Below are positions 6,446-27,229 of a stretch of DNA of 64,000 bases, piece by piece (position 1 is the first letter of the stretch; every line of letters starts with the position of its first letter). The translations under genes and the position numbers were made by a program. Under the pieces are notes generated by a model, which was given only the letters and a program-made list of their open reading frames with translations, ran no database searches and had not been told where the DNA came from. Source of the DNA: Bacteroidales bacterium (lineage in GTDB: Bacteria; Bacteroidota; Bacteroidia; Bacteroidales; JAIPAP01); the NCBI GenBank assembly GCA_021740045.1, contig JAIPAP010000002.1, forward strand, positions 13,391-77,390. The letters run 5' to 3'.

Positions 6446-7126
6446 CTACTGCTCTTCTTCCATGTTAATCAAATTGTGGTTCATGGCGTATTTCATCAAC
6501 CCCACAATAGAGCGGGTGCTGGTTTTGGTGAAGATATTTTTGCGATGGGTTTCCACCGTACGCTCACTTATAAAGAGCATATCGGCAATTTGCTCATTGG
6601 TATATTCGCGGGCTATCAGGTTAAGAATTTCGGTTTCACGGGGTGTTAGTTTTACCACATTGGGTTCAATGGTGGTAATGGCATCCTGACTGTTATATAT
6701 ATTACCCATGATAATGGTTTGCACATCACGGCTGAGGTATTTTTCCTTGCGGGCTACTGCACTTATGGCGTCAACTAGTTCATTCATATTGGTGCTTTTG
6801 AGCACATATCCCGAGGCACCGGCTTCGATCATCTTCGATATCAGGGTACTGTCATCATGCATGGTGAGCGCCAATACATATATGTTTGGATAGGCATTCC
6901 TTATTTGATAAGTTAATTCTATGCCCGACATTTTTGGCATGTTGATGTCGGCCAGTACCACATCCACTGCATGTTCGGTTAAAAACTTCAAAGCCTCATT
7001 GCCCGAGGTAACTCCCCCAACAATTTCCACGCGTTCATCCTCGGCAAATAAGGATCGTAAACCATCAATGATCAGTTGGTGATCATCAACGATAAGAAGA
7101 TTTATCGGTAAATTGTGTTCACTCAT
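6446..7126 (-). CDS. NarL/LuxR-family response regulator
   Basis: Receiver domain (LIVDDHQLIIDGL, ADINMPKMSG) plus a LuxR-type HTH (LTPRETEILNLIAREYTNEQIADMLFISERTVETHRKNI). Confidence 0.9.
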   Translation of the reverse strand: MSEHNLPINLLIVDDHQLIIDGLRSLFAEDERVEIVGGVTSGNEALKFLTEHAVDVVLADINMPKMSGIELTYQIRNAYPNIYVLALTMHDDSTLISKMIEAGASGYVLKSTNMNELVDAISAVARKEKYLSRDVQTIIMGNIYNSQDAITTIEPNVVKLTPRETEILNLIAREYTNEQIADMLFISERTVETHRKNIFTKTSTRSIVGLMKYAMNHNLINMEEEQ

Positions 7127-7135
7127 AATCCAATA

Positions 7136-9148
7136 TTAAATAGGCACATTAACAGTTATAATCGTTCCCCGGTTCTCGGCCGAGTCAATATGTACATTTC
7201 CATTTAAATTTTCAACCCTCGAAAAAGTGTTTTGCAACCCCATGCCATCGGTTTCTTTAATATGACGGGTATTAAACCCTTTTCCATTATCCTCGACTAA
7301 AATAGTAATTTCTTTTTCGTTTTTAAACATCTGCAAGCTTATTTCGGTAGCTTCGGCATGGCTGATAATATTATTAAAAATCTCCTGAATAACCCGGTAA
7401 AGCGTGTTCTCAACATATCCCTCCAGCCGTCCGTTAAAGCCGATAGCCTCAAAATGGATCTTGAATTGATTGGATTGTTTAATTCGATCGACCAAATCGC
7501 TTACTGCAGCCACCAATCCCTTGTTTTGCAACATAATGGGGGCCATATTATGGGAGATGCTTCTCAATTCATTAAAGGCATTATCCACCAGGTTGATCAA
7601 ACTGCCCACCCGGTTGCGCTCACGATCATCATTGGGTTCAATTTTCTCATAAAAGCTGCTCATATTCAGCTTTATTAATGAGAGCATTTGTCCCATTCCA
7701 TCATGCAACTCCTCTCCTATTCGTTTGCGTTCATTAATTTCGGCCTCCATCACAGCGCGGGCCCTTTTTTCCTTTTGGTTGATAAGGGCAGCATCCAGCT
7801 TGATCTTTTGCCGGTGCCTGTACTTAAAATACCATAAATACAAGCTAAGCAATCCCAGGGTGAAAATGGCGATAATGGCTATGATCTGTGTCTTACGATT
7901 TTCAAGCTGGATATTCTGTTTATCGATTCGCAGCTGCTGGATTTCGCGCTGCCGGGTTAGCTGGGTAATTTCCTTGGCTTTCTTTTCCGTTTCATAGGCC
8001 AGTTCCAGCTCATAGATCTGGTTAATGCGCTTATCGTTGATCACACTGTCTTTCACGGAAATATAGCGTTTATAAAAATCCAGTGCCTTCTTGTAATTAC
8101 CCTTACGTTCCCAAATCTTCGAGAAATTTTGATAGGCATAATATAAGGTAGGCTTACTGTTGATCCGCTCAGCCATATCTTTTGCCAGGCGATTGTAATA
8201 AAGGGCTTTCCGCAGGTTTCCTTCATCAAGGTACTTTCCTACCTTTATCAAATATGCCGAGGTAACTTCCCTGTTATTGTCAATAATGGTATTAAGGTTA
8301 ATGGTTTTGTTGATATACTCAAGCCCTTTTTCAGTTTCCCCTTTTTCAAGGTAAAGTACACCCATTTCATTATAAGAAATACCAAGCCCATAATAATCCT
8401 TAACCTGTTCCTTAATGCGAATTGACTGTTCAATATATTCAAAAGCTTTATCATTTTCTTCCATTTTATGATAAACCGAGCCGAGGTTTGTTAGGAGGGC
8501 GCCCATTCGCAATGTATCTCCAAATCGCTTATAACTTTTATAGGCCTTTTTAAAATAGTTAACGGCTTTAGGAAAATTCTTCAGCGAAGCATAAAACATC
8601 CCAATGTTATTCTGGGCACTGGTGATTCCTGTTGAATCGCGTGTATATTGAAAAAACTCCAAAGCCGAGAAGCTATAATCGAGGGCCTCCTTGTAGTTTC
8701 CTGTGCGCGAATGGGTCAGGCCAATATTATTTAATATACGGGCCATTAATAAGGTATCGCTCACCCTCCGGCACATTCTTATGGCTTTATGGTAATGGTA
8801 CAACGCACTATCATATCTGCTGTTAACATCATAAACAATTCCCGTGCGATTATGCCCATCTACCAAGCCTTTAATATAATTAAGGTGTTCCGCCAATTTA
8901 ATGGCTTTCTTGCCATATTGTAATGCAGTATCGGATTGGCTATAGGTATAATGCCAGCAAAGTTCATTTAAAACATCAACCAATGCTGTATCTTCGGCCA
9001 CTTGCAAAGCCCTGTGCAAACTATCGGGTTCCTGCCTGGAGAAAGCACTGTTATTGGTTAAAAACACAAAGCATATAATAATAACATTAAGTTTCATAAA
9101 CATCAATGGATAATACCAGATTTTGCGGTGTAAAAGTATAGATTTCAT
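7136..9148 (-). CDS. TPR-repeat sensor histidine kinase (HisKA_3 type)
   Basis: The N-terminal half has TPR-like repeats. One TM helix (IIAIIAIFTLGLLSLYLWYF), then a coiled coil. H-box EELHDGMGQMLS and an ATPase region with VEDNGKGF and GMGLQN. The gene lies 9 nt upstream of the response regulator. The true start may be the internal Met near 9103. Confidence 0.85.
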   Translation of the reverse strand: MKSILLHRKIWYYPLMFMKLNVIIICFVFLTNNSAFSRQEPDSLHRALQVAEDTALVDVLNELCWHYTYSQSDTALQYGKKAIKLAEHLNYIKGLVDGHNRTGIVYDVNSRYDSALYHYHKAIRMCRRVSDTLLMARILNNIGLTHSRTGNYKEALDYSFSALEFFQYTRDSTGITSAQNNIGMFYASLKNFPKAVNYFKKAYKSYKRFGDTLRMGALLTNLGSVYHKMEENDKAFEYIEQSIRIKEQVKDYYGLGISYNEMGVLYLEKGETEKGLEYINKTINLNTIIDNNREVTSAYLIKVGKYLDEGNLRKALYYNRLAKDMAERINSKPTLYYAYQNFSKIWERKGNYKKALDFYKRYISVKDSVINDKRINQIYELELAYETEKKAKEITQLTRQREIQQLRIDKQNIQLENRKTQIIAIIAIFTLGLLSLYLWYFKYRHRQKIKLDAALINQKEKRARAVMEAEINERKRIGEELHDGMGQMLSLIKLNMSSFYEKIEPNDDRERNRVGSLINLVDNAFNELRSISHNMAPIMLQNKGLVAAVSDLVDRIKQSNQFKIHFEAIGFNGRLEGYVENTLYRVIQEIFNNIISHAEATEISLQMFKNEKEITILVEDNGKGFNTRHIKETDGMGLQNTFSRVENLNGNVHIDSAENRGTIITVNVPI

Positions 9149-9329: not shown

Positions 9330-10802
9330 ATGAAGACAAACATTACGAGACTCACAACTTTCATTTTAGGTATTCTGTTTATAGGAATTGCATCAAATAC
9401 CCTGGCGCAGAAGGATTGGCATTTCGAACAAGTAACCGATGATAACATCAGGGATAAGGTATCGGGGCAGGCTTTTAAAGTAGACGCCGATAACAATCTT
9501 CACTTGGTTTTCGAAAAGTTCGGCGAATCATCACACGATATCTATTACACAAAAAGGCCTTGTGGCGAATACTGGACACAGCCCGTTAAAGTTAATGAAG
9601 AAAACACCAATGCATTTAAGCCGGCGCTGGCAGTAGACAGCCAGAACGTACCCTACGTATTTTATGAAATTGAACATCCTGACAGTATCGACCTTCATCT
9701 GGCTCATATGGAAGATAACAATTGGAATTATGAAGTAATAGTGGATCAACCTAAGTTTAATTTAATGCCCTCGATCGACATTGACGATCAGGGTAAAATC
9801 CACCTGGCCTGGATCGGCCCCGATTCTAAAGACTCCATGCGGGTTTGGTACGCCCATAATGATATGGGAATATGGATGATTCAGAAGCTTGGATTTACTA
9901 TCCCCAACAAGATTGGTGATCCGAAAAGCGGCCCCGAATGTAATGGCGCTAACCCCTGCATTCGCGCTAACAGCGAACAAATTGCCCATATTGTATATCG
10001 CGGTGGCGCCCCTGGATTTATGTACATCCATCACGCCTATAATACCATGCCTTTTGGTATGATGTGGGAAGAAGAGATCGTGGAAACCGAAAATCTTAAT
10101 GATTTTTATGGCATGATCGAGATCGATGATGAGGATAACATCCACTTCGCTGCCAGTGGCAACGACGGTGATGGATTCCCTGATTGGGTTTATTATCGCC
10201 AATTCAGCGATGGTAACTGGAGTGAACCCGAGAAGGTAAATAATATTGTGAACGGCCCGCTCACCTCCATGACCCTCGACAAAGAAGGAAATGCACATAT
10301 TACTTATGATGAGCTCGGTGGCTATATACTCATGGGCAATATCGGTTATGCCAACAATATAGGCGGTACATTCTCCGACACCCTTCTGCTGATCGATAGT
10401 CTCTCAATGAGTGGTGTGGTCCAGGTTGATGGTAATATGAATGTTCATGTTGCGCATCATTGGGGAGAAACCAATGATGAAAACGAAATCAGAGTAATAT
10501 CGGATGGCTACTGTGGTGGAACCACCGGCATTGAAGAGCAGGCTATTAAAGAGCAAGGTTTTGCCATTTATCCCAACCCTGCCGATGAATTTGCTACCCT
10601 GCGCTTTAACAGCGAAGCCAGTAATAAAATTGCCGTGCGGGTTTATAACCTTACCGGAAAGCTTGTAAAAGAGCTCAGCTCACAAAAACTGATGCAAAAA
10701 AATACGGTTACCATAGATATAAGCTCATTAACCAAGGGCATTTATATGGTGCAGTTGACTAATGGTGATCAGTCATACACAAATAAGTTATTGGTTAAGT
10801 AG
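9330..10802 (+). CDS. T9SS cargo protein with a beta-propeller-like sevenfold repeat
   Basis: Signal peptide. A short strand motif recurs about seven times (HLVFE, YVFYE, IHLAWIG, AHIVYRG, IHFAASG, AHITYDE, VHVAHHW). C-terminus is IYPNPADEFATLRF...GIYMVQL...LLVK. Confidence 0.8.
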   Translation: MKTNITRLTTFILGILFIGIASNTLAQKDWHFEQVTDDNIRDKVSGQAFKVDADNNLHLVFEKFGESSHDIYYTKRPCGEYWTQPVKVNEENTNAFKPALAVDSQNVPYVFYEIEHPDSIDLHLAHMEDNNWNYEVIVDQPKFNLMPSIDIDDQGKIHLAWIGPDSKDSMRVWYAHNDMGIWMIQKLGFTIPNKIGDPKSGPECNGANPCIRANSEQIAHIVYRGGAPGFMYIHHAYNTMPFGMMWEEEIVETENLNDFYGMIEIDDEDNIHFAASGNDGDGFPDWVYYRQFSDGNWSEPEKVNNIVNGPLTSMTLDKEGNAHITYDELGGYILMGNIGYANNIGGTFSDTLLLIDSLSMSGVVQVDGNMNVHVAHHWGETNDENEIRVISDGYCGGTTGIEEQAIKEQGFAIYPNPADEFATLRFNSEASNKIAVRVYNLTGKLVKELSSQKLMQKNTVTIDISSLTKGIYMVQLTNGDQSYTNKLLVK

Positions 10803-10832
10803 TAATTGGAGTTTACCTTTTTTAAGCAGAAC

Positions 10833-10864
10833 GACCGGGGGTTTTGGAACTCCCGGTCTTTTTT
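10833..10864 (+). terminator. rho-independent terminator
   Basis: Stem gaccggg / cccggtc followed by a T6 run, 30 nt after the stop at 10802. Confidence 0.6.
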
Positions 10865-10877
10865 AAAAGCAAAATCT

Positions 10878-12548
10878 ATGAAAAAGATCAGTCTTTTATT
10901 CATAATTTTTATTTCGGGACTTTTATCACTAGGCCAATCCCAACGTATGGTGATACTCGAGCATTTTACCGGAGCTTCCTGCACATTTTGCGCTGTTTAC
11001 AATCCCATGGTAGAAGAACTGCTCAATAATCACCCCGACAAAATCACTTCTATTAAATACCAGTTCTTTCTCCCCGACCCCATGTATCATCACTGTAATG
11101 AAGATATTGATGCCAGGTTGGAATACTATAATAATCAGGCTGTCCCGCACAGTATATTGGATGGTAACTTTTTCGACGATCATCCGGCCAACCTTTCCGG
11201 TGAGATTATCCTGGAGCGCTACAATGAGCCTTCGCCTTTTAACATACAGCCTCATCATGAATTATCACCCGATAATGATTCGGTTTATATCGATATGCTA
11301 ATTGAGGCCACAGCCCCCGTTAATGGTAATTTATCGGCATATATTGCCGTTGTGGAAGAGCATATCCATTTTGAAGAGCCGCCCGGACAAAACGGTGAAA
11401 CGGATTTTTATAATGTATTGAAGAAGATGTTACCGACCTCCCAGGGCAAGACGCTGCAGCAAGATTTCCAGGAAGGAGACTATGTGCTATTACAAACCCA
11501 ATGGAAAACCGAGAACTTTTATAATATCGAAAAATTGGAGGTTATTGGTTTTGTGCAGGATATGGGAACCCGGGAAATCCATCAAACGGTTGTTAGCAGC
11601 GATCAGCCCATTACACCCCTTTTTAAAAACGACGTGGAATTGATACAAACTGACCATGTTCCGGCGATCTATTGTGATCATTTGCAACCCCGGATTGTTA
11701 TCAGGAACAATGGCTCACAAACATTGAATAAGCTACAAATCAGTGCATCGATCAACAGGGAAGAGGTGTTTTCAAAAAACTGGACCGGAAATCTCAAATC
11801 ATTAGAAACAACAAGCATTCAACTCGATCCCCTGGAATTTATCCCACAGGAGCAAAACGAACTGTTAATCAGCCTCGCATCTCCTAATAATAGTAACGAT
11901 GGGTATTCAGCCAACAATGAACAGCTATTCGCCATAAAGAACGCTCCCAGGGCTTCTCAATCCATCGTACTCATGATCAAAACCGATAACAATCCCGGCG
12001 AAACTTCATGGAAGCTTATCAACAGCATGGAAGAAATCATTGAGTCCGGGGGGCCATATGATCAAGCAGGCACTTTATACTCACATAGATTAAGTTTTAA
12101 TGATGAGGGTTGTTATACCATTGTCATCTCCGATTCGGCCGGCAACGGATTTAACAGCGAAAACGGCAACGGATTTTTTCTTATCGTAGACGATTCAGGT
12201 AATCCCATGCATGAAGGAACTTTTATCAGCAACTCCATAGGTTTGCCCGTACACATGACCAGTGCCGCTACCATTAAGGAGTCGCAATCAAACACCTTAG
12301 TGCAGGTGTATCCGAATCCCGTAAGAGAGAATGTAACACTGAACATAAATGGTAACATGACCGGCCCGGTTATGATTACCTTATATAATATGTATGGAAA
12401 AAAAGTTCGACAATATGAAAAGAAAAACCTCTATAATGGGATGATAAACCTTAAACTGGACCACTTACAAGCCGGTTATTATATCCTTCAAATTACTGAT
12501 GAAAAAGGGAACACCTATACCACCGAAATGATCAAAGCAAAACCCTGA
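10878..12548 (+). CDS. T9SS cargo protein with an Omp28-related/thioredoxin-fold N-terminal region
   Basis: The track ORF begins at 10806, but that start overlaps the upstream terminator. MKKISLLFIIFISGLLSLGQ at 10878 is a proper signal peptide. The segment MVILEHFTGASCTFCAVYNP resembles the Omp28-related family. C-terminus is VYPNPVRENVTLNI...GYYILQI. Confidence 0.7.
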   Translation: MKKISLLFIIFISGLLSLGQSQRMVILEHFTGASCTFCAVYNPMVEELLNNHPDKITSIKYQFFLPDPMYHHCNEDIDARLEYYNNQAVPHSILDGNFFDDHPANLSGEIILERYNEPSPFNIQPHHELSPDNDSVYIDMLIEATAPVNGNLSAYIAVVEEHIHFEEPPGQNGETDFYNVLKKMLPTSQGKTLQQDFQEGDYVLLQTQWKTENFYNIEKLEVIGFVQDMGTREIHQTVVSSDQPITPLFKNDVELIQTDHVPAIYCDHLQPRIVIRNNGSQTLNKLQISASINREEVFSKNWTGNLKSLETTSIQLDPLEFIPQEQNELLISLASPNNSNDGYSANNEQLFAIKNAPRASQSIVLMIKTDNNPGETSWKLINSMEEIIESGGPYDQAGTLYSHRLSFNDEGCYTIVISDSAGNGFNSENGNGFFLIVDDSGNPMHEGTFISNSIGLPVHMTSAATIKESQSNTLVQVYPNPVRENVTLNINGNMTGPVMITLYNMYGKKVRQYEKKNLYNGMINLKLDHLQAGYYILQITDEKGNTYTTEMIKAKP

Positions 12549-13265
12549 TCAGCCCTTATCGCTGATCTTGACCAGGGCTTCACGGTCATGAATGGTGAAA
12601 TGATTATTGGACAGTTCAATAATGCGGGCATCTTTAAATTCCTTTAGAATACGTATGGCGCTTTCCTTACTCATGGAAGTTAAATCAGCAATGTCTTGCC
12701 TGCTTAATGGTGTTTCAAAACTGGTAGCGTTATGAATTTCATCGGCAAGGTATAATAATGCATCGGCAATACGCCCCGACATGTGCTTTTGGGTAAGGTT
12801 GATGAATTTTTTAAAGTTTTGTATTCCCTGTATATTATTCTTTTTAAGGATGTTAAGGGCCAGGTTCTGGTTCATTTTCATGATCTTCTCCAGGGAATTC
12901 ACATCTATAAAGCACGTTTGCACATCAGTTAAGGCCGCTACTGAAAAATGATGAATAAAATCAACATACATTCCCGGCCCACCAATAATGGCGTTTTCCC
13001 TGGCCACTTTAATAAGAAGGTTTTTTTTGTTAAGCCCCTCGATATATATTTTTACCATACCCTGCAGAATGCAGGCAATGTGGGTAAGCGCTGTACCTTG
13101 CTTAAACATAATTTCACCGGCGTTAAATTCAACTTCATGCCGGTTCTCATTCAGTATTTCAAGTTGTTCGGGTGATAATCCCCTAAAGATACTTTGAGTT
13201 AAACAGCATGTAGTACATGCCATCTTTCTTGAATATTTCGCCATTGAATCTCTCTTTTCCGCCAC
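12549..13265 (-). CDS. Crp/Fnr-family transcriptional regulator with an N-terminal Cys cluster
   Basis: cNMP-binding-like beta-roll and a C-terminal HTH (RQDIADLTSMSKESAIRILKEF). Cysteines sit at C17, C20, C21 and C118 (numbered from the track start), reminiscent of FNR iron-sulfur ligands. Confidence 0.85.
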   Translation of the reverse strand: MAEKRDSMAKYSRKMACTTCCLTQSIFRGLSPEQLEILNENRHEVEFNAGEIMFKQGTALTHIACILQGMVKIYIEGLNKKNLLIKVARENAIIGGPGMYVDFIHHFSVAALTDVQTCFIDVNSLEKIMKMNQNLALNILKKNNIQGIQNFKKFINLTQKHMSGRIADALLYLADEIHNATSFETPLSRQDIADLTSMSKESAIRILKEFKDARIIELSNNHFTIHDREALVKISDKG

Positions 13266-13334
13266 AAATATAGTAAATTAAATATGTTGATAAATAATTT
13301 TATACCTAAATGCACCCTAAAGGTAAATAAAATA

Positions 13335-13348
13335 TTGATATTAATCAA
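13335..13348. promoter_or_regulatory. perfect FNR/CRP-type box TTGAT-N4-ATCAA
   Basis: The sequence ttgatattaatcaa lies in the 216-bp divergent intergenic region between the Crp/Fnr gene and the first cytochrome gene. A second palindrome, ttgat-N7-atcaa, is at 13356-13372. Confidence 0.55.
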
Positions 13349-13481
13349 CATATACTTGATGCCGGTCATCAAAAAATTGGGTTTACTTCTTTTTAAGCAA
13401 AGAGGTATATCAGGCTTAAAAACATTCATCGATTTATATTAATATGTAATATTGTGAATGATTTCACGAAGAAATTTATGA

Positions 13482-14543
13482 ATGATGACCAAAAAACTTA
13501 CAATCATGAAACGATTTAATTTACTAGCACTTATGATGGCCATATTCATTGGCTCGGCAATTATTTTTGCAGGATGTACAAAGGAAGGACCGCAAGGCCC
13601 TCCAGGTAAGGACGGCGAAGACGGTGTTGACGGCGAAGACGGCACTGCCGGCTGTATTGAATGCCATGATGATTCACAAACGATCTTTGCAGCTGAAAAT
13701 CAATGGGCAGCATCGGTACATGCCACCGGAGGCAATTTTGAGCGTAACGGTACAGATTGTGCGCCATGTCACACCAGCCAGGGATTTCTGGAAGTTATCG
13801 AAACCGGAGCTATGGAAACAGAAGCCCCCATTAGCAATCCAAATCCCCAAAACTGTTATACCTGTCATAATATCCATGACACATACACACCCGAAGATTG
13901 GAGCTTTACAACTTCTGCTCCGGTTGAATTCTGGATTAACGGTGATGGGTATGATATGGGCAAATCGAACGTGTGTGCAGGATGCCACCAGCCCAGAGTT
14001 CCTGATCCACTACCAACACCCGGGCAGGGCGGTAATGTAACCATCAATTCACCCTATTGGGGTCCGCACCATGGCCCGCAAGCAGCTATGCTGGTGGGAA
14101 CCGGTGGTTACGAAGTAGGAAGTGGCTACGACAACTCGGCCCATACCAATGCCCTTGAGAATGGATGTGTAACATGCCACATGGCGGAGCCCTATGGTAC
14201 TCAGGCAGGCGGTCATACCATGGGAATGACTTATGCGTATCATGGCCATGGCGTGGTGAATAAGGCTGGCTGCACAGCTTGCCACACCGATCCGGATGCC
14301 TTGGACGCTAAGATTGAAAGCACTAAAGAGGACATTGACGAAAAACTGGCCGAACTACGCAGTAAGCTTCTCGAACGTGGAGTATTGGATAGCAGCGACC
14401 ACGTAGTGCCCGGTGAAATGAGCATGGATGAAGCAGGCGGTGTGTTCAACTACCTTTATGTTATGGAAGATCGCAGCGGTGGTAGCCATAATTTCAACTA
14501 TGCCTTTTCCCTACTGAATAACAGTCTTGAATCATTGAATTAA
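13482..14543 (+). CDS. hexahaem c-type cytochrome lipoprotein with a collagen-like Gly-X-Y tract
   Basis: Lipobox IIFAGC. GPQGPPGKDGEDGVDGEDGTAG follows it immediately. Six CXXCH motifs (CIECH, CAPCH, CYTCH, CAGCH, CVTCH, CTACH). The alternative start MKRFNLL at 13506 gives a cleaner signal peptide. Confidence 0.85.
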   Translation: MMTKKLTIMKRFNLLALMMAIFIGSAIIFAGCTKEGPQGPPGKDGEDGVDGEDGTAGCIECHDDSQTIFAAENQWAASVHATGGNFERNGTDCAPCHTSQGFLEVIETGAMETEAPISNPNPQNCYTCHNIHDTYTPEDWSFTTSAPVEFWINGDGYDMGKSNVCAGCHQPRVPDPLPTPGQGGNVTINSPYWGPHHGPQAAMLVGTGGYEVGSGYDNSAHTNALENGCVTCHMAEPYGTQAGGHTMGMTYAYHGHGVVNKAGCTACHTDPDALDAKIESTKEDIDEKLAELRSKLLERGVLDSSDHVVPGEMSMDEAGGVFNYLYVMEDRSGGSHNFNYAFSLLNNSLESLN

Positions 14544-14697: not shown

Positions 14698-15090
14698 ATG
14701 AAAGGTTGGAAAATATTCAGAATAGGAATCATATTCATGATAGTGGCAGCTTTTACATCATGCGAATATGAATTTATCGAGCCGCCTCAACCCGATTTTA
14801 ACGGCGAGGATAGTGTTTTAAGCTTTTCCGATAAAATTCTCCCCATTTTTACGGATGGTGATAACTGTACATCATGCCACAACAGCGGCGGGACCCCACC
14901 CGATCTTACAGCGGGCAATGCCTATAACAGCATTATGAATAATAATCTGGTTGACACGGCTGCACCCGAGCAAAGTGTACTTTATGATTATGTAAGACCG
15001 GATACCGATAGCCACGACTGGAAAGCGTATACCTCAACCGAAGCTCAGCTGGTTCTTGAATGGATCAAACAAGGAGCTAAGAATAATTAA
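14698..15090 (+). CDS. small monohaem c-type cytochrome lipoprotein
   Basis: Signal peptide ending in the lipobox AFTSC, followed by an acidic stretch EYEFIEPPQPDFNGED. There is a single CTSCH motif. Confidence 0.7.
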   Translation: MKGWKIFRIGIIFMIVAAFTSCEYEFIEPPQPDFNGEDSVLSFSDKILPIFTDGDNCTSCHNSGGTPPDLTAGNAYNSIMNNNLVDTAAPEQSVLYDYVRPDTDSHDWKAYTSTEAQLVLEWIKQGAKNN

Positions 15091-15986
15091 TGTCGGAACG
15101 AAAAAATATGAGGATGATGAAGAATAAAATAGTATGGCTTGTGTTGATCGGTTTGATCATTACAACAACTGCTTTTGCACAAGATGAACAAAAACGCCAG
15201 GATCCACCGGTAAGAGCACCCTTCGAAAGCGGTGTGCTTATCGACAATCAAACGGTTCAGATACCTTATAAAAACACCCTTGAATTTGTTATCGAACACC
15301 GTTTTGGAACTATTGATAACGGCTTAACCGATATGTACGGTCTTTATGCACCGTCGAATATCAGGTTGGGGCTGAATTACAGCATTACCGACGATATTAT
15401 GGTAGGGGCTGGAATTACCAAAGATCGTAAACTTACCGACCTGCGCGGTAAATATAGTATTATAAAGCAAACCCGGAATAACAGCATTCCGGTGTCGGTT
15501 TCCTTTTACGGAAACATGGCAATTGATGGAAGGGAAGATGCTTACTTTGGCGAACAATATGAGTTTACCAACCGCTTCTCCTATTTTTCCCAATTGATCT
15601 TTTCCCATAAATTCGATTACCGTTTCTCATTCCAGGTGGCCCCGAGCTTTTCGCATATTAATGCAGTGGACTCGGCTTACGAGCATGATAAACTTGCCGT
15701 CTCGCTGAGTGGCCGGGCACGTTTTAGCCCTCAGTCATCTATTATCGTAAACTACGATATTCCATTGCACATTGAAAGCATGCAGGAACACGCTACCTTA
15801 AATATAAAGCCGAAACCAAACCTCGGTGTAGGATGGGAGGTATCCACCAGCACCCACGTTTTCCAGATCTTTGTGGGAACGGCCGATGCTATGATGCCCC
15901 AGTACAATATTATGTTTAACCGTAATGACTGGACTGATGGAGAGATCATGCTCGGATTTAACATTACGCGATTATGGAGTTTCTAG
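15090..15986 (+). CDS. predicted outer-membrane beta-barrel protein
   Basis: TAATG stop/start overlap with the upstream gene. Signal peptide (VWLVLIGLIITTTAFAQ). Alternating amphipathic strands throughout. C-terminal GFNITRLWSF ends in Phe, a beta-signal-like terminus. The start may be an internal Met (MRMMKNK). Confidence 0.6.
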   Translation: MSERKNMRMMKNKIVWLVLIGLIITTTAFAQDEQKRQDPPVRAPFESGVLIDNQTVQIPYKNTLEFVIEHRFGTIDNGLTDMYGLYAPSNIRLGLNYSITDDIMVGAGITKDRKLTDLRGKYSIIKQTRNNSIPVSVSFYGNMAIDGREDAYFGEQYEFTNRFSYFSQLIFSHKFDYRFSFQVAPSFSHINAVDSAYEHDKLAVSLSGRARFSPQSSIIVNYDIPLHIESMQEHATLNIKPKPNLGVGWEVSTSTHVFQIFVGTADAMMPQYNIMFNRNDWTDGEIMLGFNITRLWSF

Positions 15987-16023: not shown

Positions 16024-16440
16024 ATGAAGAAGAATATGTTATCGGTACTGCTTGTGAGTTTTGCCGCCATTATGCTTATGGCGTTTACAGCACCGCAGGA
16101 TAAGAAAAAAGGCGAGCCTTGGGATATCCCTGAAAAATATCAGAAAATGGAAAATCCCCATAAAGGTGATAAAGGCATGGTTCGTATAGGAAAAATGCTT
16201 TATTCCAAGCATTGCAAATCATGCCACGGTAACCGTGGACAAGGTGACGGACCGCGAGCCAGGCAACTGGAAACCTTCCCCGGGGACTTCACTTCCGAGG
16301 AATTCCAGGAACGCAAAGCCGGTGTATTGTACTATCAGTCATTCATCGGACGTGATGAGATGCCCAACTTCGAAAAGGAAATCCCTGTTGAAGAAGATCG
16401 CTGGGCTATTATTAACTACTTAAGAACATTCGGAGAATAA
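16024..16440 (+). CDS. periplasmic monohaem class I cytochrome c (paralog 1)
   Basis: Signal peptide, CKSCHG haem motif, distal Met candidate in GRDEMPNF, and an RBS-like aggagag upstream. Confidence 0.85.
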   Translation: MKKNMLSVLLVSFAAIMLMAFTAPQDKKKGEPWDIPEKYQKMENPHKGDKGMVRIGKMLYSKHCKSCHGNRGQGDGPRARQLETFPGDFTSEEFQERKAGVLYYQSFIGRDEMPNFEKEIPVEEDRWAIINYLRTFGE

Positions 16441-16557: not shown

Positions 16558-17520
16558 ATGAGCGGGCGAAATCTGATAATTTTTCTTTCGATCTCAATAA
16601 CATTACTACTAGGTACTTCCGCAGCTCCGGCCCAGGAACAAGATACAACCGGCTTACCCGAAAACGTGAAAGCTAATGAAGAATGCCTGAGCTGCCATGG
16701 CAATGAATATTATTCATACTTTAACCGGTGGCTCGACAGGAATGTACGCGACCGGATGAATCCTTATTATATCATCGATTCATCCAAATTCTATCATTCC
16801 AACCATAGCACCTTTAAATGTATCGATTGCCATTCTTATGAATATGATACTTTCCCCCACCCGGGCGGATTAAGGTTGGAACCCCAGTACACATGCATGG
16901 ACTGCCATGCATGGGGGGAGGAATGGGAAAAATTCAATTTCGAGACCATCCAGAAAGAATTCCAGGAAAGCGTCCATTACCAGGAACACAATCAATCATT
17001 CGATTGCTGGATGTGTCATGAGCCACACTCCTATAAATTAACGGCTCGTAAATCCGACACCATTAAAAATATTGTGGCTTACAACAATTCGATCTGTTTA
17101 AGCTGTCATTCCAATACAGATAAATACCAACTAATTGCCGAAAAAGAAAATCCCAACCTTATTGAAAGCCACGATTGGTTACCCAATCAGCGATTGCATT
17201 TTAATAATGTTCGTTGCCTCGAGTGTCATGCTAAAAAAGTAGACACCCTGATGGTGGCTCATAATATACGGCCCAAAGAAGAAGCTGTGCGGAAATGCGC
17301 AGAATGTCATTCGAGGAATTCCATGCTTATGGCTAGTTTATACAAATATAAATCAAAACAGGCCCGGCAAGAATATGGTTTTCTGAATGCGATTATGATG
17401 AGTGAATCATTTGTTATAGGAGCCAACAGAAACCAAATCCTCAATACAATCAGTCTGGTCATTTTCGGACTTGTAATACTCGGGATTGTAATTCATACTA
17501 TCTTGCGAATTATAAACTAA
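16558..17520 (+). CDS. heptahaem c-type cytochrome with a C-terminal membrane anchor
   Basis: Signal peptide. Seven CXXCH motifs (CLSCH, CIDCH, CMDCH, CWMCH, CLSCH, CLECH, CAECH). C-terminal hydrophobic helix ISLVIFGLVILGIVIHTIL. Confidence 0.85.
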   Translation: MSGRNLIIFLSISITLLLGTSAAPAQEQDTTGLPENVKANEECLSCHGNEYYSYFNRWLDRNVRDRMNPYYIIDSSKFYHSNHSTFKCIDCHSYEYDTFPHPGGLRLEPQYTCMDCHAWGEEWEKFNFETIQKEFQESVHYQEHNQSFDCWMCHEPHSYKLTARKSDTIKNIVAYNNSICLSCHSNTDKYQLIAEKENPNLIESHDWLPNQRLHFNNVRCLECHAKKVDTLMVAHNIRPKEEAVRKCAECHSRNSMLMASLYKYKSKQARQEYGFLNAIMMSESFVIGANRNQILNTISLVIFGLVILGIVIHTILRIIN

Positions 17521-17539
17521 ACTGAAGATAAAAGAAGAA

Positions 17540-18175
17540 ATGGGAAAAAAGATCTATCATTATCCGTTTTGGATTCGCCTTTGGCACTGGGTTAATGCAG
17601 TATTATGTATCCTTCTGATCTTCTCCGGCTTGAGTATGCAATATTCTGATCCGCAAAACTACTTTATTTCTTTCGATGTGGCGGTATCAATGCATAATGT
17701 TTCGGGAATATTATTAACTCTCGGATACATAGGCTTTTTGATCGGTAATATCAGAACATCCAATGGCAGTTATTACAAAATTAACTGGTCTACCATCGGG
17801 CGCGATCTGATAAAACAGCTTAGGTACTACATGTTTGGGATGTTTAGAAAGGAAAAGACACCTTTCCCGATCAATGATAAGCGAAAATTGAATCCTTTGC
17901 AAAAAGTAACCTATGATGGTGTTATGTACCTTCTGCTTCCCTTATTGATTATAACCGGCTGGGCATTGCTCTTTCCGGAGATAATACTTGACCGTTTGTT
18001 TGGGGTAAGCGGGTTGCAATTAAACGACCTGGTGCATATCATTACCGGGTTCTTGGTTTCCATCTTTTTGGTTGTCCATATCTACTTCAGCACAATTGGA
18101 GCAACGCCTTCAGCACATTTTGAGGCAATGATCAATGGATATCATAAGATGCATGATGAACCGGAAAGCCACTAA
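17540..18175 (+). CDS. membrane b-type cytochrome (Ni/Fe-hydrogenase/FdnI/PhsC-like cytochrome b family)
   Basis: Four to five TM helices with conserved His residues. The N-terminal motif FWIRLWHWVNAVLCILLIFSGL is typical of this family. The gene starts 19 nt after the heptahaem gene. Confidence 0.7.
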   Translation: MGKKIYHYPFWIRLWHWVNAVLCILLIFSGLSMQYSDPQNYFISFDVAVSMHNVSGILLTLGYIGFLIGNIRTSNGSYYKINWSTIGRDLIKQLRYYMFGMFRKEKTPFPINDKRKLNPLQKVTYDGVMYLLLPLLIITGWALLFPEIILDRLFGVSGLQLNDLVHIITGFLVSIFLVVHIYFSTIGATPSAHFEAMINGYHKMHDEPESH

Positions 18176-18276: not shown

Positions 18277-19779
18277 ATGAAATTACCCAAGGCCTTTTAC
18301 AACTGGACTTCCCTGTCGGGAGCAACTTTAGCAATGATAAGCTTTTTTATCATTGTCTTCTTGATTTTGATATCGATGATTTATTCCGGCGGTAGTTCTT
18401 ATCTTGGGTTGTTCACTTACATTATTTTACCGGTATTTCTTGTTATTGGGTTAATTCTTATTCCCATCGGGATGATAAGGAAGACCAAAAAAGATAAGAA
18501 AACCGCTCCTGCACCTGAACAAAAAAAGTGGCCGATTCTCAACCTGAACGATACCCGTTACAGGAATGCTCTGATAGTTTTCTCCTTCGGAACGCTCATT
18601 TTCCTGATGGTATCGGCCATTGGGAGTTACGAGGCTTATCATTATACCGAATCGGTTGAATTTTGCGGCAAAGTGTGCCACGAAGTGATGAAGCCCGAAT
18701 ATATAGCTTATCAGAATTCACCACATGCCAGGGTAGCATGCGTAGATTGCCATGTTGGGCCGGGAGCCGGATGGTATGTAAAATCCAAATTATCGGGTTT
18801 ATACCAGGTATATGCGGTTACAACCGGTAATTACCCCAAGCCCATACCCACGCCGGTTGAAAATTTACGCCCGGCCAGAGAAACCTGTGAAGAATGCCAT
18901 TGGCCTCAAAAATTTTATTCCCGTAAGCTAAAATTCCGCAAACACTATTTGGCTGACACTAAAAATACCGAGTGGGATATTACTATGGAAATGAAAATAG
19001 GTTCCAATTATGAGGCATTAGGACTTAAGGAGGGAATTCACTGGCACATCAACCCGGATGTTAAAATCGAATACATTGCCGCTGATGACAAACGGGAAGT
19101 AATACCATGGGTACGCTATACCGATACTAAAACAGGCGAATCGGTTATTTATCAAAGCCCCGATACCACCATTAACGCCAAGCAGGTAGAGCCATCAAAA
19201 ATCCGCACCATGGATTGTATTGATTGCCATAACCGGCCATCGCATAATTATCATCCTCCGCAGGAATATTTCGATAATGCCATTACCGCCGGAAAAGTGC
19301 CCAAAGAATTACCCGATATTAAAGTAGCTGCTATGGGCGTTTTAAGCGAAGATTACCCAACCACCGATAGCGCCATGGAATTTATCGAAAGCGAAATTAA
19401 TACCTATTACGAGTTATTGTACCCTGAAGTATACGACACTGCCAAAGCCCTGATCGATCAGGCCATAGAAGCAACAAAGGAAGAATTCAAAAAGAACGTA
19501 TTCCCGGGCATGAAGGTTAAATGGAATAAATACCCCAATCACATCGGGCATCTTAACTCCGAAGGATGTGTTCGTTGCCATGACGATAAGCATGTTTCCA
19601 TGAATGGCCGTACCATTTCACGTGATTGTAATTCATGCCATGACATTGTTGCCCAGGGAACACCCGGTAAAATGGAACAAGCGTCGGCCTTGGAAACCCT
19701 CGAATTCAAACACCCCATTGATATAGGTGAGGCCTGGAGAGAAACTCACTGTGCTGATTGTCATAAAGACTTGTATTAA
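18277..19779 (+). CDS. membrane-anchored multihaem cytochrome with a NapC/NirT-like region (ImcH-like architecture)
   Basis: Two to three N-terminal TM helices. The NapC/NirT-like signature is CGKVCHEVMKPEYIAYQNSPHARVACVDCH. There are six CXXCH motifs (CVDCH, CEECH, CIDCH, CVRCH, CNSCH, CADCH) plus one CX3CH (CGKVCH). Confidence 0.8.
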   Translation: MKLPKAFYNWTSLSGATLAMISFFIIVFLILISMIYSGGSSYLGLFTYIILPVFLVIGLILIPIGMIRKTKKDKKTAPAPEQKKWPILNLNDTRYRNALIVFSFGTLIFLMVSAIGSYEAYHYTESVEFCGKVCHEVMKPEYIAYQNSPHARVACVDCHVGPGAGWYVKSKLSGLYQVYAVTTGNYPKPIPTPVENLRPARETCEECHWPQKFYSRKLKFRKHYLADTKNTEWDITMEMKIGSNYEALGLKEGIHWHINPDVKIEYIAADDKREVIPWVRYTDTKTGESVIYQSPDTTINAKQVEPSKIRTMDCIDCHNRPSHNYHPPQEYFDNAITAGKVPKELPDIKVAAMGVLSEDYPTTDSAMEFIESEINTYYELLYPEVYDTAKALIDQAIEATKEEFKKNVFPGMKVKWNKYPNHIGHLNSEGCVRCHDDKHVSMNGRTISRDCNSCHDIVAQGTPGKMEQASALETLEFKHPIDIGEAWRETHCADCHKDLY

Positions 19780-19949: not shown

Positions 19950-20366
19950 ATGAAAAGAATTTTAGCATTATTAATGGTTTTCAGCATGGCCATTATATTT
20001 TTAATGGCATTTACATTTCCACAAGATCAAAAAGAAGGCAAACCCTGGGATATTCCTGAAAAATACAAAAAGATGGAAAATCCGCATAAGGGTGACAAAC
20101 GATCGGTACGAATCGGCAAGATGCTTTATTCCAAGCATTGTAAATCGTGCCATGGCAACAAAGGAGCCGGTGACGGCCCGCGTGCCAAGCAACTGGAAAC
20201 ACAACCCAACGACTTTGGCACTAAAGAATTCCAGGAGCAAAAAGCCGGTGTGTTGTATTATAAATCATTTATCGGCCGTGGGGAAATGCCCAATTTCGAA
20301 AAGGAAATTCCCGTTGAGGAAGACCGTTGGGCTATTATCAATTACATGAGAACATTTGGTAAATAA
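19950..20366 (+). CDS. periplasmic monohaem class I cytochrome c (paralog 2)
   Basis: Same length (138 aa) as the 16024-16440 product. Roughly four-fifths of mature-region residues are identical by eye. CKSCHG motif, with aaggag upstream. Confidence 0.85.
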   Translation: MKRILALLMVFSMAIIFLMAFTFPQDQKEGKPWDIPEKYKKMENPHKGDKRSVRIGKMLYSKHCKSCHGNKGAGDGPRAKQLETQPNDFGTKEFQEQKAGVLYYKSFIGRGEMPNFEKEIPVEEDRWAIINYMRTFGK

Positions 20367-21307: not shown

Positions 21308-22765
21308 ATGAAAACCAAGTCCCTTTTTTCGCTACTGATCGGCCTGAGTATAATTCACCTTGCATTTACCCAAGAGCTTCACCAATGGCATGAACCTGTT
21401 ATGCTTACTGATTCTTTATCGGATAACCATGATCCCTGCATCAGCACCTTTAACTCCATTACCCCTGCTCAAAGCATAATGGCGTGGGAGAAAGTGATCA
21501 ATGAAAACACAACAGCCATTTGCATACGTGAACTCACAGAAATGCCCCCAACCGATACGGTTCTCTATGAAGATAATGTCCATTACCTGAACCCGGAGAT
21601 CATGAAACCTTATCATGGATTTCCCAAATCGGAGGTGATGTATTTATTGATTTATAACCGGGTTGAAGGAGAAGATCACAGCCTTGCATACTTTGAAGCT
21701 TATGATGACGGCACCTATTCGGAACCCACCGAAATTGCTTCTGCAATTGGCGATTCATTGGCATTTTCAGCGGCAAATGAAATTGGAATAGCTTACAGCA
21801 AGCAAGAGGAAATACGCTATGCTCCTTTGCTGGAAGAAAAATCGAAAGACCTGTATTTTGGCGAAGTCCAGGTAGTGGATACCGGGAATTGCTTCTCTCC
21901 ATTCCTTTCAATGGATTATAAGTTATGCTGGCTTAAAGCTGTGGATGATAGTATGGCTATTATGCATTCAGCATACAGTTTTTATCAGGATGAATGGTCG
22001 GAGCCCGAAGAAGTGTATAGAGGCCAAGAAATAACTGGGTTTGGCGGAAATAAGAAAGGAGCTTTTACAAGCCTTATTCATTGGTATGAACCGGCCGAGC
22101 CATACAGCAAGGTCTTTTATTATGGACTATTGAGCGGTGAACTTCACGAAATGGAAATACCGGAAAACACCGCTAAAAGTTACCCAACTGTAATCACCTA
22201 TCCAATGATCACCACCGGTTTTACTATTGTTGATGCCCTTATTGGCTTTGTCGTCGATTCGGGGGATAATCCTGAAATCTTTGCCAATAATCAAATGTAT
22301 GGCAGTTATCCCGAAATAAACATCTCCAATTATGCCGGGATGGATACCAAACCGGAAATGTTCCTGGGCGAAATAGGTCCATACTGGATGGAAATTCTTT
22401 GCACCTGGGAATCCTACCGGAACGGGCATTGGGTGATTATGAAGAATTACTTATATGCTGCATTAGGCAGCGTGGAGGAAACCGAAAGTACTGCCGGGGA
22501 TTTCAAATTGCACCCCAACCCAATGGATCATTCTGCTACTGTTAGTTATGAGCTGAACAATCCCGGCCCTGTTCGTATAAGCATTTACGATCAACGCGGA
22601 AAAATAATCAAAACACTGATTAATGAGGAAAAGGATAGCGGCCATCATCAAATCACATGGGACAGGACAAGTGCTGATGGAACTGATGTGCCGCCGGGTA
22701 TTTATTTGATTAGATTTAATACCGGGAGCCAATCTGCCTCCAAAAAACTAATAGTCATCCATTAA
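21308..22765 (+). CDS. T9SS cargo protein, tandem paralog 1 of 5
   Basis: Signal peptide MKTKSLFSLLIGLSIIHLAFTQ. Conserved family motifs (W.EPV.LTD..SDN..P, NISNY.G.DTKPE, WES.RNGHW). C-terminal HPNPMDHSATVSY...GIYLIRF. Confidence 0.85.
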   Translation: MKTKSLFSLLIGLSIIHLAFTQELHQWHEPVMLTDSLSDNHDPCISTFNSITPAQSIMAWEKVINENTTAICIRELTEMPPTDTVLYEDNVHYLNPEIMKPYHGFPKSEVMYLLIYNRVEGEDHSLAYFEAYDDGTYSEPTEIASAIGDSLAFSAANEIGIAYSKQEEIRYAPLLEEKSKDLYFGEVQVVDTGNCFSPFLSMDYKLCWLKAVDDSMAIMHSAYSFYQDEWSEPEEVYRGQEITGFGGNKKGAFTSLIHWYEPAEPYSKVFYYGLLSGELHEMEIPENTAKSYPTVITYPMITTGFTIVDALIGFVVDSGDNPEIFANNQMYGSYPEINISNYAGMDTKPEMFLGEIGPYWMEILCTWESYRNGHWVIMKNYLYAALGSVEETESTAGDFKLHPNPMDHSATVSYELNNPGPVRISIYDQRGKIIKTLINEEKDSGHHQITWDRTSADGTDVPPGIYLIRFNTGSQSASKKLIVIH

Positions 22766-22821
22766 AGGGAACATAGCCATTATGAAATTCACCAAATTGC
22801 GATAACCAAAATACATCAACC

Positions 22822-24276: not shown

Positions 24277-24300
24277 TGATCAATCCAAAAAAACTGCCCT

Positions 24301-25746: not shown

Positions 25747-25769
25747 TTACTGATCCAAAAAACAAAGTC

Positions 25770-27200: not shown

Positions 27201-27229
27201 TCTTCAAACCAGTATAAAAAAAATACATC

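Follow-up and report, generated by a model that had tools for sequence, protein, structure and literature searches.

How a bacterium of the Bacteroidales decides when to build a set of multihaem cytochromes is the question raised by the locus shown above. A gene for a Crp/Fnr-family protein is transcribed away from a cytochrome island, and the spacer between the two contains a palindrome of the FNR type. Is this palindrome a control site, which protein reads it, and to what would that protein respond? In our view the locus probably works as one system, in which a Crp/Fnr regulator, acting through a phased array of FNR-type boxes, controls a cytochrome operon that is switched by anoxia or redox state. 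In what follows, the window is the whole 64-kb stretch of DNA that was analysed, and all coordinates refer to it.

The cytochrome island and related loci

The island lies on the forward (+) strand and contains the following genes:

13482..14543, + strand: hexahaem lipoprotein, the first gene of the island, with six CxxCH motifs, a lipobox and a collagen-like Gly-X-Y linker
14698..15090, + strand: 130-aa monohaem (CTSCH) putative lipoprotein, assigned from the sequence and syntenic in 55 of 80 related loci
15090..15986, + strand: DUF5777 membrane beta-barrel, a candidate outer-membrane conduit (Pfam PF19089, E = 1e-79)
16024..16440, + strand: monohaem class-I cytochrome c (Pfam Cytochrom_C and Cytochrome_CBB3)
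16558..17520, + strand: CbcA-like cytochrome with seven CxxCH motifs and a C-terminal transmembrane helix
17540..18175, + strand: CbcB-like dihaem cytochrome b (Pfam Ni_hydr_CYTB; by similarity a "thiosulfate reductase cytochrome b")
18277..19779, + strand: ImcH-like inner-membrane cytochrome of 500 aa with NapC/NirT and NrfH domains
19950..20366, + strand: second monohaem cytochrome c, 79% identical to the product of 16024..16440

A first-pass annotation of this DNA had described the first gene as hexahaem, and six CxxCH motifs were indeed counted in it; its product also matches the Pfam families Cytochrome_C7 and Mtrc-MtrF_II-IV_dom, the latter an MtrC/MtrF-like domain. Two further parts of the island resemble known electron-transfer proteins. 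First, CbcA and CbcB have been described as a seven-haem c-type cytochrome with a C-terminal anchor and a four-helix dihaem cytochrome b, and CbcB homologues are usually annotated as thiosulfate-reductase-like (bioRxiv 10.1101/2021.04.15.440034). The products of 16558-18175 have this architecture when compared, by description, with GSU0593/0594; the CbcB-like protein scores 178.8 bits against the NCBIfam PhsC model, under its 204-bit cut-off. Second, ImcH proteins are about 495-519 aa long and have three N-terminal transmembrane helices, an adjoining CX3CH motif and five to nine CX2CH motifs (PMC6295460). The product of 18277-19779 agrees in architecture with this published description (PMC6295460), since three transmembrane helices at its N-terminus are accompanied by an atypical CX3CH (CGKVCH) and by six CX2CH motifs. 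Homologues of cbcBA are present in other Bacteroidetes (Prolixibacter, Marinilabiliales and Labilibaculum), and cbcBA has been proposed as a marker of extracellular electron transfer (bioRxiv 10.1101/2021.04.15.440034). A literature search on DUF5777 returned nothing. The island, whose products include putative periplasmic cytochromes c, probably encodes a trans-envelope respiratory chain of the extracellular-electron-transfer type.

A search with a profile of the regulator yielded 80 loci, and every one of them belongs to an uncultured Bacteroidales or Bacteroidota genome. These loci are phylogenetically related, and the counts given below are therefore not counts of independent events, though the regulators are only 42-57% identical to the window's protein. 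Homologues of the island genes were sought in the 80 loci by tblastn with the island proteins of the window, and gene starts within the loci were taken from the tblastn alignments. The hexahaem lipoprotein was found in 65 of the 80 loci, the DUF5777 barrel in 62, the 130-aa protein in 55, the seven-haem protein in 47 and the cytochrome b in 45, and the order of the island genes is kept across the syntenic loci. The Crp/Fnr regulator adjoins the cytochrome island in about 68 of the 80 loci. Two layouts occur: 34 loci are divergent, as in the window, and 34 are co-directional, with the regulator upstream on the same strand.

The regulator and its cysteines

The regulator gene is the following feature:

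12549..13244, - strand: Crp/Fnr-family regulator with a probable 231-aa product from ATG 13244 (Pfam, AlphaFold2 and cysteine conservation)

Three starts are available to this gene: GTG 13265, which gives the longest open reading frame (238 aa), ATG 13244 (231 aa) and 13223, where an identical NCBI protein ("MAG: Bacteroidales bacterium") begins. Most relatives are 231 aa long and have nine residues ahead of the first Cys (MxxxxxxxxCxxC); ATG 13244 gives MAKYSRKMAC, to be compared with MAKFSKSTHC and the like in relatives. Judged by this similarity, ATG 13244 is likely the start. The divergent spacer of 216 bp reported at first is correct for the longest reading frame from GTG 13265, but with the family and NCBI starts the spacer measures 237-258 bp.

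The protein belongs to the Crp/Fnr superfamily, which is defined by a beta-roll that binds cNMP at the N-terminus, a long dimerisation helix and a Crp-type helix-turn-helix at the C-terminus, with Pfam matches to PF00027 cNMP_binding (46.9 bits) and PF13545 HTH_Crp_2 (59.9 bits), both above the cut-offs. No NCBIfam equivalog was reached, and the curated models for FNR proper are far off (Fnr, 33.5 bits against a cut-off of 228; FnrL, 47.2 against 300). An AlphaFold2 model of the regulator (pLDDT 88, with the first ten residues not confident) has MtbCRP, A. fischeri holo-FNR and 2gau as its top structural matches, and CRP/FNR structures match it with TM 0.8-0.88. DNR (3dkw) and CprK (2h6c) are sequence matches in the PDB (HMMER). 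The recognition helix, K-E-[SN]-[AV]-I-R, is nearly invariant among homologues. In the window it reads KESAIR and aligns with VETISR of FNR (BLASTP against E. coli FNR): Glu and Arg are kept and Ser is replaced by Ile. In FNR, this Glu and Arg read TTGA.

The cysteines of interest are listed here in the numbering of the three possible products, with their occurrence in 111 homologues:

First Cys of the CxxC: C3 (224 aa), C10 (231 aa), C17 (238-aa ORF); Cys in 109/111
Second Cys of the CxxC: C6 (224 aa), C13 (231 aa), C20 (238-aa ORF); Cys in 111/111
Extra Cys: C7 (224 aa), C14 (231 aa), C21 (238-aa ORF); Cys in 11/111
Beta-roll Cys: C51 (224 aa), C58 (231 aa), C65 (238-aa ORF); Cys in 109/111
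Central Cys: C104 (224 aa), C111 (231 aa), C118 (238-aa ORF); Cys in 111/111

Four cysteines are thus conserved, C10, C13, C58 and C111 of the 231-aa product (C17, C20, C65 and C118 of the 238-aa ORF), and 107 of the 111 homologues have all four. The C-X2-C-C cluster and C118 noticed by the first-pass annotation do occur in the window, but the second Cys of its C-C pair (C21) is a rarity among homologues, and the widely conserved C65 had gone unmentioned. The likeness to the ligand layout of FNR, claimed at the same time, holds in part. HMMER aligned residues 3-221 of the query with residues 29-252 of the A. fischeri FNR chain, which places the CxxC on C20/C23; the central Cys aligns with C122 of E. 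coli FNR (BLASTP), and this C122 equivalent is present in 111/111 homologues. The total of four cysteines also agrees with FNR. However, of the N-terminal C-X2-C-X5-C of FNR only C-X2-C is kept; the column of C29 holds Asn (73/111), Ser or Asp, and the fourth Cys comes from the beta-roll instead.

The position of this fourth Cys varies among the regulators encoded by the 80 loci. It lies in beta3 in 60/80. Another 16/80 are without the beta3 Cys and have a Cys at the column of the window's His36 in beta1, and in 4/80 a third N-terminal Cys (CxCxxC) takes its place. All 80 nevertheless keep four cysteines, with the fourth relocated in sub-lineages. Loss of the cysteines among orthologues had been named in advance as an observation that would refute the first-pass proposal; with 107/111 homologues carrying the four and 80/80 regulators keeping their number, the proposal came through this test. 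From a tetra-coordinate metal site one would expect just such relocation of the fourth Cys at a constant count of four; a simple two-Cys disulfide switch is thereby disfavoured. Strands beta1, beta3 and beta8 would share one jelly-roll sheet, and it is this topology, together with the covariation of the cysteines, that suggests the four to be close in space. To judge from these alignments, the four conserved cysteines most likely hold a metal centre, and this centre is probably an Fe-S cluster as in FNR. The regulator would then be responsive to oxygen or redox state.

Crp/Fnr proteins sense in several other ways, including B. subtilis Fnr with its C-terminal cluster, the thiol switches CprK and FLP, and the haem sensors DNR, CooA and HcpR. 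As these proteins show, a sensing module may shift or be exchanged within the superfamily without loss of the HTH and the dyad operator. The present pattern (CxxC, beta-roll Cys and C122 equivalent) is not known from B. subtilis Fnr, CprK, FLP, DNR, CooA or HcpR. The most serious alternative to our interpretation accepts the same operator and the same regulator and differs on the cysteines only: the Cys4 site would be not an O2-labile Fe-S cluster but a structural Zn site or a thiol-disulfide switch like that of CprK/FLP, and the regulator would really respond to NO, to the ambient redox potential or to a small ligand bound in the beta-roll pocket. The missing C29 and the un-FNR-like place of the fourth ligand are consistent with this, as are the N-terminal extension ahead of the CxxC, which is only about 9 residues long, and the absence of an Fe-S cluster from 2gau, the regulator's nearest relative by sequence in the PDB. 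Moreover, cbcBA of Geobacter responds to falling redox potential and not to O2 (bioRxiv 10.1101/2021.04.15.440034). On the other hand, three of the four Cys positions align with cluster ligands of FNR, and the constant number of four, whichever of beta3, beta1 and the N-terminus holds the fourth, fits a tetra-coordinate metal site, although a Zn site may fit too. We consider this alternative unlikely but weighty, and an Fe-S cluster of the FNR kind is the reading that we prefer.

The operator

The palindrome from which the analysis started is the following feature:

13335..13348, no strand assigned: box 1, an FNR-type operator of consensus sequence, TTGATATTAATCAA; it is the strongest site of the array and the one farthest from the island promoter

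In the sequence itself, TTGATATTAATCAA is the exact TTGAT-N4-ATCAA match that had been claimed, and it is the only one in the 64-kb window. Shuffled windows contain on average 0.27 exact N4 boxes, and 22 of 100 shuffles have at least one. By itself, the exact match is not significant; since shuffles yield such a box so often, the case for box 1 must rest on its context and conservation, and its weight comes from position and conservation.

In 64 of the 68 syntenic loci, a TTGAY-N4-RTCAA box (at most one relaxed mismatch) is found before the first gene of the island. Control of the cytochrome genes from an FNR-type box, as predicted earlier, is supported by the retention of the trio of regulator, box and island in these 64/68 loci. 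In the co-directional loci the box sits between the regulator and the hexahaem gene and therefore belongs to the island promoter. The same dyad was recovered without bias: in a search of the 68 spacers for all 4-mer inverted repeats with 0-14 nt spacing, TTGA-N6-TCAA was the top dyad, present in 37/68 spacers versus 1.0 in shuffles. A position weight matrix (PWM) was built from 59 unique orthologous boxes, with the window's own box left out. Its consensus is aTTGAYAwwTRTCAAt, and its spacer and flank positions are informative, though they were not used in selecting the boxes. Box 1 scores 20.7 bits with this matrix, and the runner-up in the 64-kb window scores 7.7 bits. Box 1 thus has the form and place of an FNR-type operator, a TTGAT-N4-ATCAA dyad before a regulated promoter. 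As far as sequence comparison goes, this shows that box 1 is a real, conserved, functional control site tied to the adjacent Crp/Fnr gene and the cytochrome genes.

The phased array and the island promoter

Downstream of box 1, the spacer contains these features:

13356..13369, no strand assigned: box 2, TTGAT-GCCG-GTCAT, an N4 box of degenerate sequence whose first base is 21 bp on from that of box 1
13377..13390, no strand assigned: possible third array position TTGGGTTTACTTCT at +42, very weak (-23 bits)
13400..13413, no strand assigned: promoter-proximal half-site box AAGAGGTATATCAG with the conserved core ATATCA at 13407-13412
13447..13454, + strand: Bacteroidetes-type -7 motif TAATATTG of the cytochrome operon (sequence motif and family register)

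The first-pass annotation had seen a second palindrome here, TTGAT-GCCGGTC-ATCAA, as an element with N7 spacing. The letters are present at 13356-13372, and the 64-kb window has no other exact match of this pattern. The two elements are separated by 7 nt (13349-13355) and not 8. The interpretation as a separate N7 element was rejected. Among exact TTGAY-Nn-RTCAA dyads in the 68 spacers, 37 have N4 and 1 has N7, and N4 alone is enriched. The N7 palindrome overlaps box 2, and the second element is better read as a degenerate N4 box two helical turns from box 1; most simply, the palindrome would be a by-product of a GTCATCAA sequence. A junction of the form TCAA-N7-TTGA was found de novo in 22/68 spacers, and the window has exactly such a junction. 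Box 2 is weak, at -1.4 bits, and only 53 of 63,978 positions in the window score as high. Its spacer is GC-rich, which is atypical of the family.

The spacing of 21 bp recurs across the family. When the loci are anchored on their best box, secondary boxes lie at -21 (22% of loci) and at +21/+22 (26%), and essentially nowhere else between -70 and +130 of the anchor box. Half-sites in the +42 register were found in about 26-28 of 60 loci; in the window, 13377-13390 is probably not a site.

The array is also in register with a promoter. In 61 of 63 non-redundant loci, the distance between the start of the anchor box and a TAnn[TAC]TTG motif is either 89-94 or 110-113 bp, and in the window the -7 motif is at +112 from the start of box 1. 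If the loci are aligned on the -7 motif, with P as its first base, the best-conserved upstream element is ATaTCA at P-40..P-35. Of 60 loci, 31-34 have it there, and the control offsets yielded no occurrence; the window carries an exact match at 13407-13412. Half-sites form a series at about P-41, P-62, P-84 and P-105, and again the control offsets gave none. In the window the site centres are at about P-40.5, P-84.5 and P-105.5. By the textbook geometry of Bacteroides, transcription starts about 12 bp past the start of the -7 motif. On this motif geometry the island transcript is predicted to start at about 13459-13462, and the site centres would lie at about -53, -97 and -118 from that start, which is not the classical class II placement of FNR at -41.5. 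Bacteroidetes RNA polymerase differs from that of E. coli, which bears on this comparison. A scan for E. coli-type sigma70 promoters and terminators gave chance-level counts and is inapplicable to Bacteroidetes. No conserved -33 element was found at the island promoter, either in the aligned loci or in the window sequence. Promoters without a -33 element are typically activator-dependent.

On the side of the regulator gene, one further feature was noted:

13265..13272, - strand: candidate Bacteroidetes -7 motif TATATTTG for the regulator gene, read from the sequence, tentative

This motif is 76 bp from the start of box 1. Its assignment is tentative because the distance to box 1 varies across loci: a conserved promoter geometry on the regulator side was sought and rejected, since the distances cluster only loosely, in 9 loci at 63-67 bp, as against 76 bp in the window. 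Many co-directional loci also have a box before the regulator, and about 14 are without it. Autoregulation is possible, but the geometry of box and promoter on this side is not fixed and is insufficient to claim it.

The boxes before the regulator in those co-directional loci, the 76 bp between box 1 and the candidate regulator-side motif, and site positions unlike the classical -41.5 would all suit an array that represses, for example with oxidised or apo regulator coating the upstream region, or one that chiefly controls the divergent regulator gene. We hold this to be improbable, as the array keeps its register with the island promoter but not with the regulator promoter, the -7 motif and the predicted transcription start are free of overlapping sites, and the island promoter is without a recognisable -33 element, as is typical of activator-dependent promoters. 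Activation of the island promoter therefore remains the preferred interpretation.

Extent of the predicted regulon

In the 1.09 Mb of DNA covered by the loci, the PWM finds 132 sites of at least 12 bits, and 78 of them fall inside the 21.7 kb of regulator-island spacers; this concentration is partly circular, as the matrix was trained on the same spacers. The remaining sites mostly precede either the regulator, in co-directional loci, or other genes of the island, the ImcH-like gene for example. In the 64-kb window, the PWM scan found no other strong box, for example before the ImcH-like gene as in one related locus (L002). The regulon looks local in extent, as judged from these predicted sites.

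TTGAT-N4-ATCAA is a generic motif of the FNR/FixK type, and some loci encode two paralogous regulators. It could be argued, then, that the boxes are bound by another Crp/Fnr protein, such as a global one encoded elsewhere, and that the adjacent regulator reads something else. We give this little credence: over 1.09 Mb of flanks strong boxes are almost confined to the island and the region upstream of the regulator, a second one is missing from the 64-kb window, and regulator, box and island are co-inherited in both gene layouts. The adjacent regulator is the more likely binder. Finally, that both palindromes are chance matches within AT-rich intergenic DNA has practically no probability left, for although one exact box per 64 kb is not rare (22 of the 100 shuffles), the idea is already contradicted by the conservation of the box in 64/68 orthologous spacers, the offsets of the secondary boxes, the quantised distance to the -7 motif and the de novo recovery of the dyad.

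Discussion

The conserved gene trio, the boxes and their spacing, the promoter register and the cysteines are observed features of these loci. From them we infer the scheme that follows, which covers the protein that binds, the sign of its action, its cofactor and signal, and what the island is for. Box 1 would be the high-affinity operator of a phased array that also comprises box 2 and the proximal half-site at 13400-13413. The array would stand in fixed register upstream of the -7 promoter at 13447-13454, which would drive an operon beginning with the hexahaem gene at 13482. The product of the divergent Crp/Fnr gene (12549-13244) is the most likely binder. Its dimers, spaced by two turns of the helix on the same face of the DNA, may aid the filling of the weak promoter-proximal site, and the bound array would activate a promoter that has no -33 element. 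The state of the Cys4 centre (O2 or redox) would decide on dimerisation and DNA binding, and the island would be expressed when oxygen is absent or conditions are reducing, which is when a chain for extracellular respiration is useful.

Comparison with known systems may help to place this regulator. With FNR of E. coli and A. fischeri, the oxygen sensor in which an O2-labile [4Fe-4S] cluster governs dimerisation and DNA binding, it shares the fold (the holo-FNR structures 5e44/9ql* are among the top structural matches, TM about 0.8), the operator consensus, the Glu and Arg of the recognition helix, and four cysteines that include the CxxC and the central Cys. Unlike FNR, it has no C29, and its fourth Cys is in beta3, or in beta1 or the N-terminus in sub-lineages; Ser212 of the FNR helix is Ile. 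FNR is a global regulator, whereas the present one serves one local gene island, and where FNR uses a single site at -41.5, here a 21-bp phased array lies far upstream of a Bacteroidetes -7-type promoter. In short, the regulator is FNR-like in its proposed working, but it does not conform to the C-X2-C-X5-C pattern or to the curated models, and its promoter placement and scope also differ.

A second parallel is BccR-cbcBA of Geobacter sulfurreducens. There too, a dedicated divergent regulator accompanies an operon with a seven-haem CbcA and a dihaem CbcB, the counterparts of the CbcA-like and CbcB-like proteins here, and cbcBA serves extracellular respiration (bioRxiv 10.1101/2021.04.15.440034). 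However, BccR is a sigma54-dependent response regulator, in contrast to the four-Cys Crp/Fnr protein and FNR-type operator of the Bacteroidales locus, and the Bacteroidales island has further genes, for an ImcH-like cytochrome, a DUF5777 barrel and a haem lipoprotein. A third parallel comes from the anode-biofilm organism "Bacteroidetes_1", in which an uncharacterised seven-gene cluster of multihaem cytochromes and a beta-barrel was proposed by its authors to be a new extracellular-electron-transfer cluster (PMC8258643). By description it is similar to the present island, with multihaem cytochromes and one predicted beta-barrel in uncultured, electrode-enriched Bacteroidetes, but no regulator or operator is described there (PMC8258643).

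In a literature search of partial coverage, which took in FNR-type boxes in Bacteroidetes and the cytochromes of Prolixibacter, neither this lineage of regulators nor its operator or phased array was found described. It is conceivable, and we suggest it only tentatively, that we are dealing with an undescribed FNR-like lineage of Bacteroidota, in which a CxxC, a C122 equivalent and a mobile fourth Cys form a metal centre. Such a lineage would be dedicated to turning on an extracellular-electron-transfer chain, may read redox potential and not O2, and would work by cooperative binding of two to four dimers, in an array with 21-bp spacing and in a promoter geometry not known for Crp/Fnr activators.

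Extracellular electron transfer in Bacteroidota is mostly inferred from metagenomes, and neither its regulator and operator nor the condition that induces it has been described. The module described here offers three handles: the regulator, a 14-bp operator with a family PWM, and a promoter of fixed geometry. They let the expression of a putative ImcH/CbcBA-type chain in uncultured Bacteroidales be predicted, and they provide a means of searching genomes for such clusters and of making reporters in relatives that can be cultivated (such as Prolixibacter and Labilibaculum). The locus would also be a case of Crp/Fnr activation at a Bacteroidetes -33/-7 promoter, hardly studied so far. The movement of the fourth putative ligand among three positions, with the count constant at four, is a natural experiment on how the environment of the cluster tunes the sensitivity of FNR-like sensors to O2 or redox state. 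The regulation of a putative electron-export system of Bacteroidota thereby becomes directly testable.

Variation in the regulator and its candidate operators

In a number of the 80 related Bacteroidales loci (L-numbers below), the four-Cys Crp/Fnr-family regulator belongs to sub-lineages whose cysteines are arranged differently from those of the window protein, which has a CxxC pair, a central cysteine and a fourth cysteine on beta-strand 3 (C58 in the 231-aa numbering). The fourth cysteine is shifted to beta-strand 1 in L037, L040, L044, L047, L050, L051, L053, L056, L059, L068-L072, L076 and L077, and this placement is always accompanied by a His before the CxxC. In the regulators of L017, L024, L049 and L060 it is replaced by a third N-terminal cysteine (CxCxxC), by which the 3+1 cysteine layout of classical FNR is regained.

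The public annotation of the window regulator gives a protein of 224 aa starting at 13223. An ATG at 13244 yields 231 aa with nine residues before the CxxC, as is usual in the family, and the public start is probably mis-set. The longest ORF of the gene begins at a GTG (13265) that would itself sit within the candidate -7 motif.

Both the regulator and its candidate operator, the FNR-type box, are found in additional copies in some loci. Two paralogous four-Cys regulators lie within or adjoining one cytochrome island in L051 (8001-8666 and 8746-9411), L020, L060 and L067. The hexahaem genes are likewise doubled in L018, L020, L050 and L051, the second copy being preceded by its own box in L050 and L051. 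A separate strong box belongs to the ImcH-like gene in L002 (at about 3097), L005 (about 1199) and L019 (about 1220), the gene being on the opposite strand in the latter two; in the window, no strong FNR-type box was found upstream of the ImcH-like gene (18277).

Genes in and around the island

The region 6446-9148, which lies upstream of the regulator at a distance of two genes, encodes a HisKA_3 histidine kinase that contains TPRs, together with a response regulator of the LuxR type; kinases related to the former are also present close to the island in a small number of loci (L041, L043, L045, L052 and L061). Two type IX secretion (T9SS) cargo genes (9330-12548) lie immediately upstream of the regulator, and five tandem paralogues of about 476-485 aa each (21308-28672) directly follow the island on its 3′ side. 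In both of the two paralogues scanned, a FlgD_ig domain is accompanied by a C-terminal sorting domain of the type IX secretion kind.

Within the island, the inner-membrane modules (CbcBA-like and ImcH-like) are flanked by two monohaem cytochrome c genes (16024-16440 and 19950-20366), whose products are 79% identical to each other; two such copies are also present in several related loci. The hexahaem lipoprotein (13482-14543) contains a collagen-like Gly-X-Y run, GPQGPPGKDGEDGVDGEDG, at residues ~36-57, right behind the lipobox cysteine. This stretch may serve as a spacer keeping the haem domain off the membrane.
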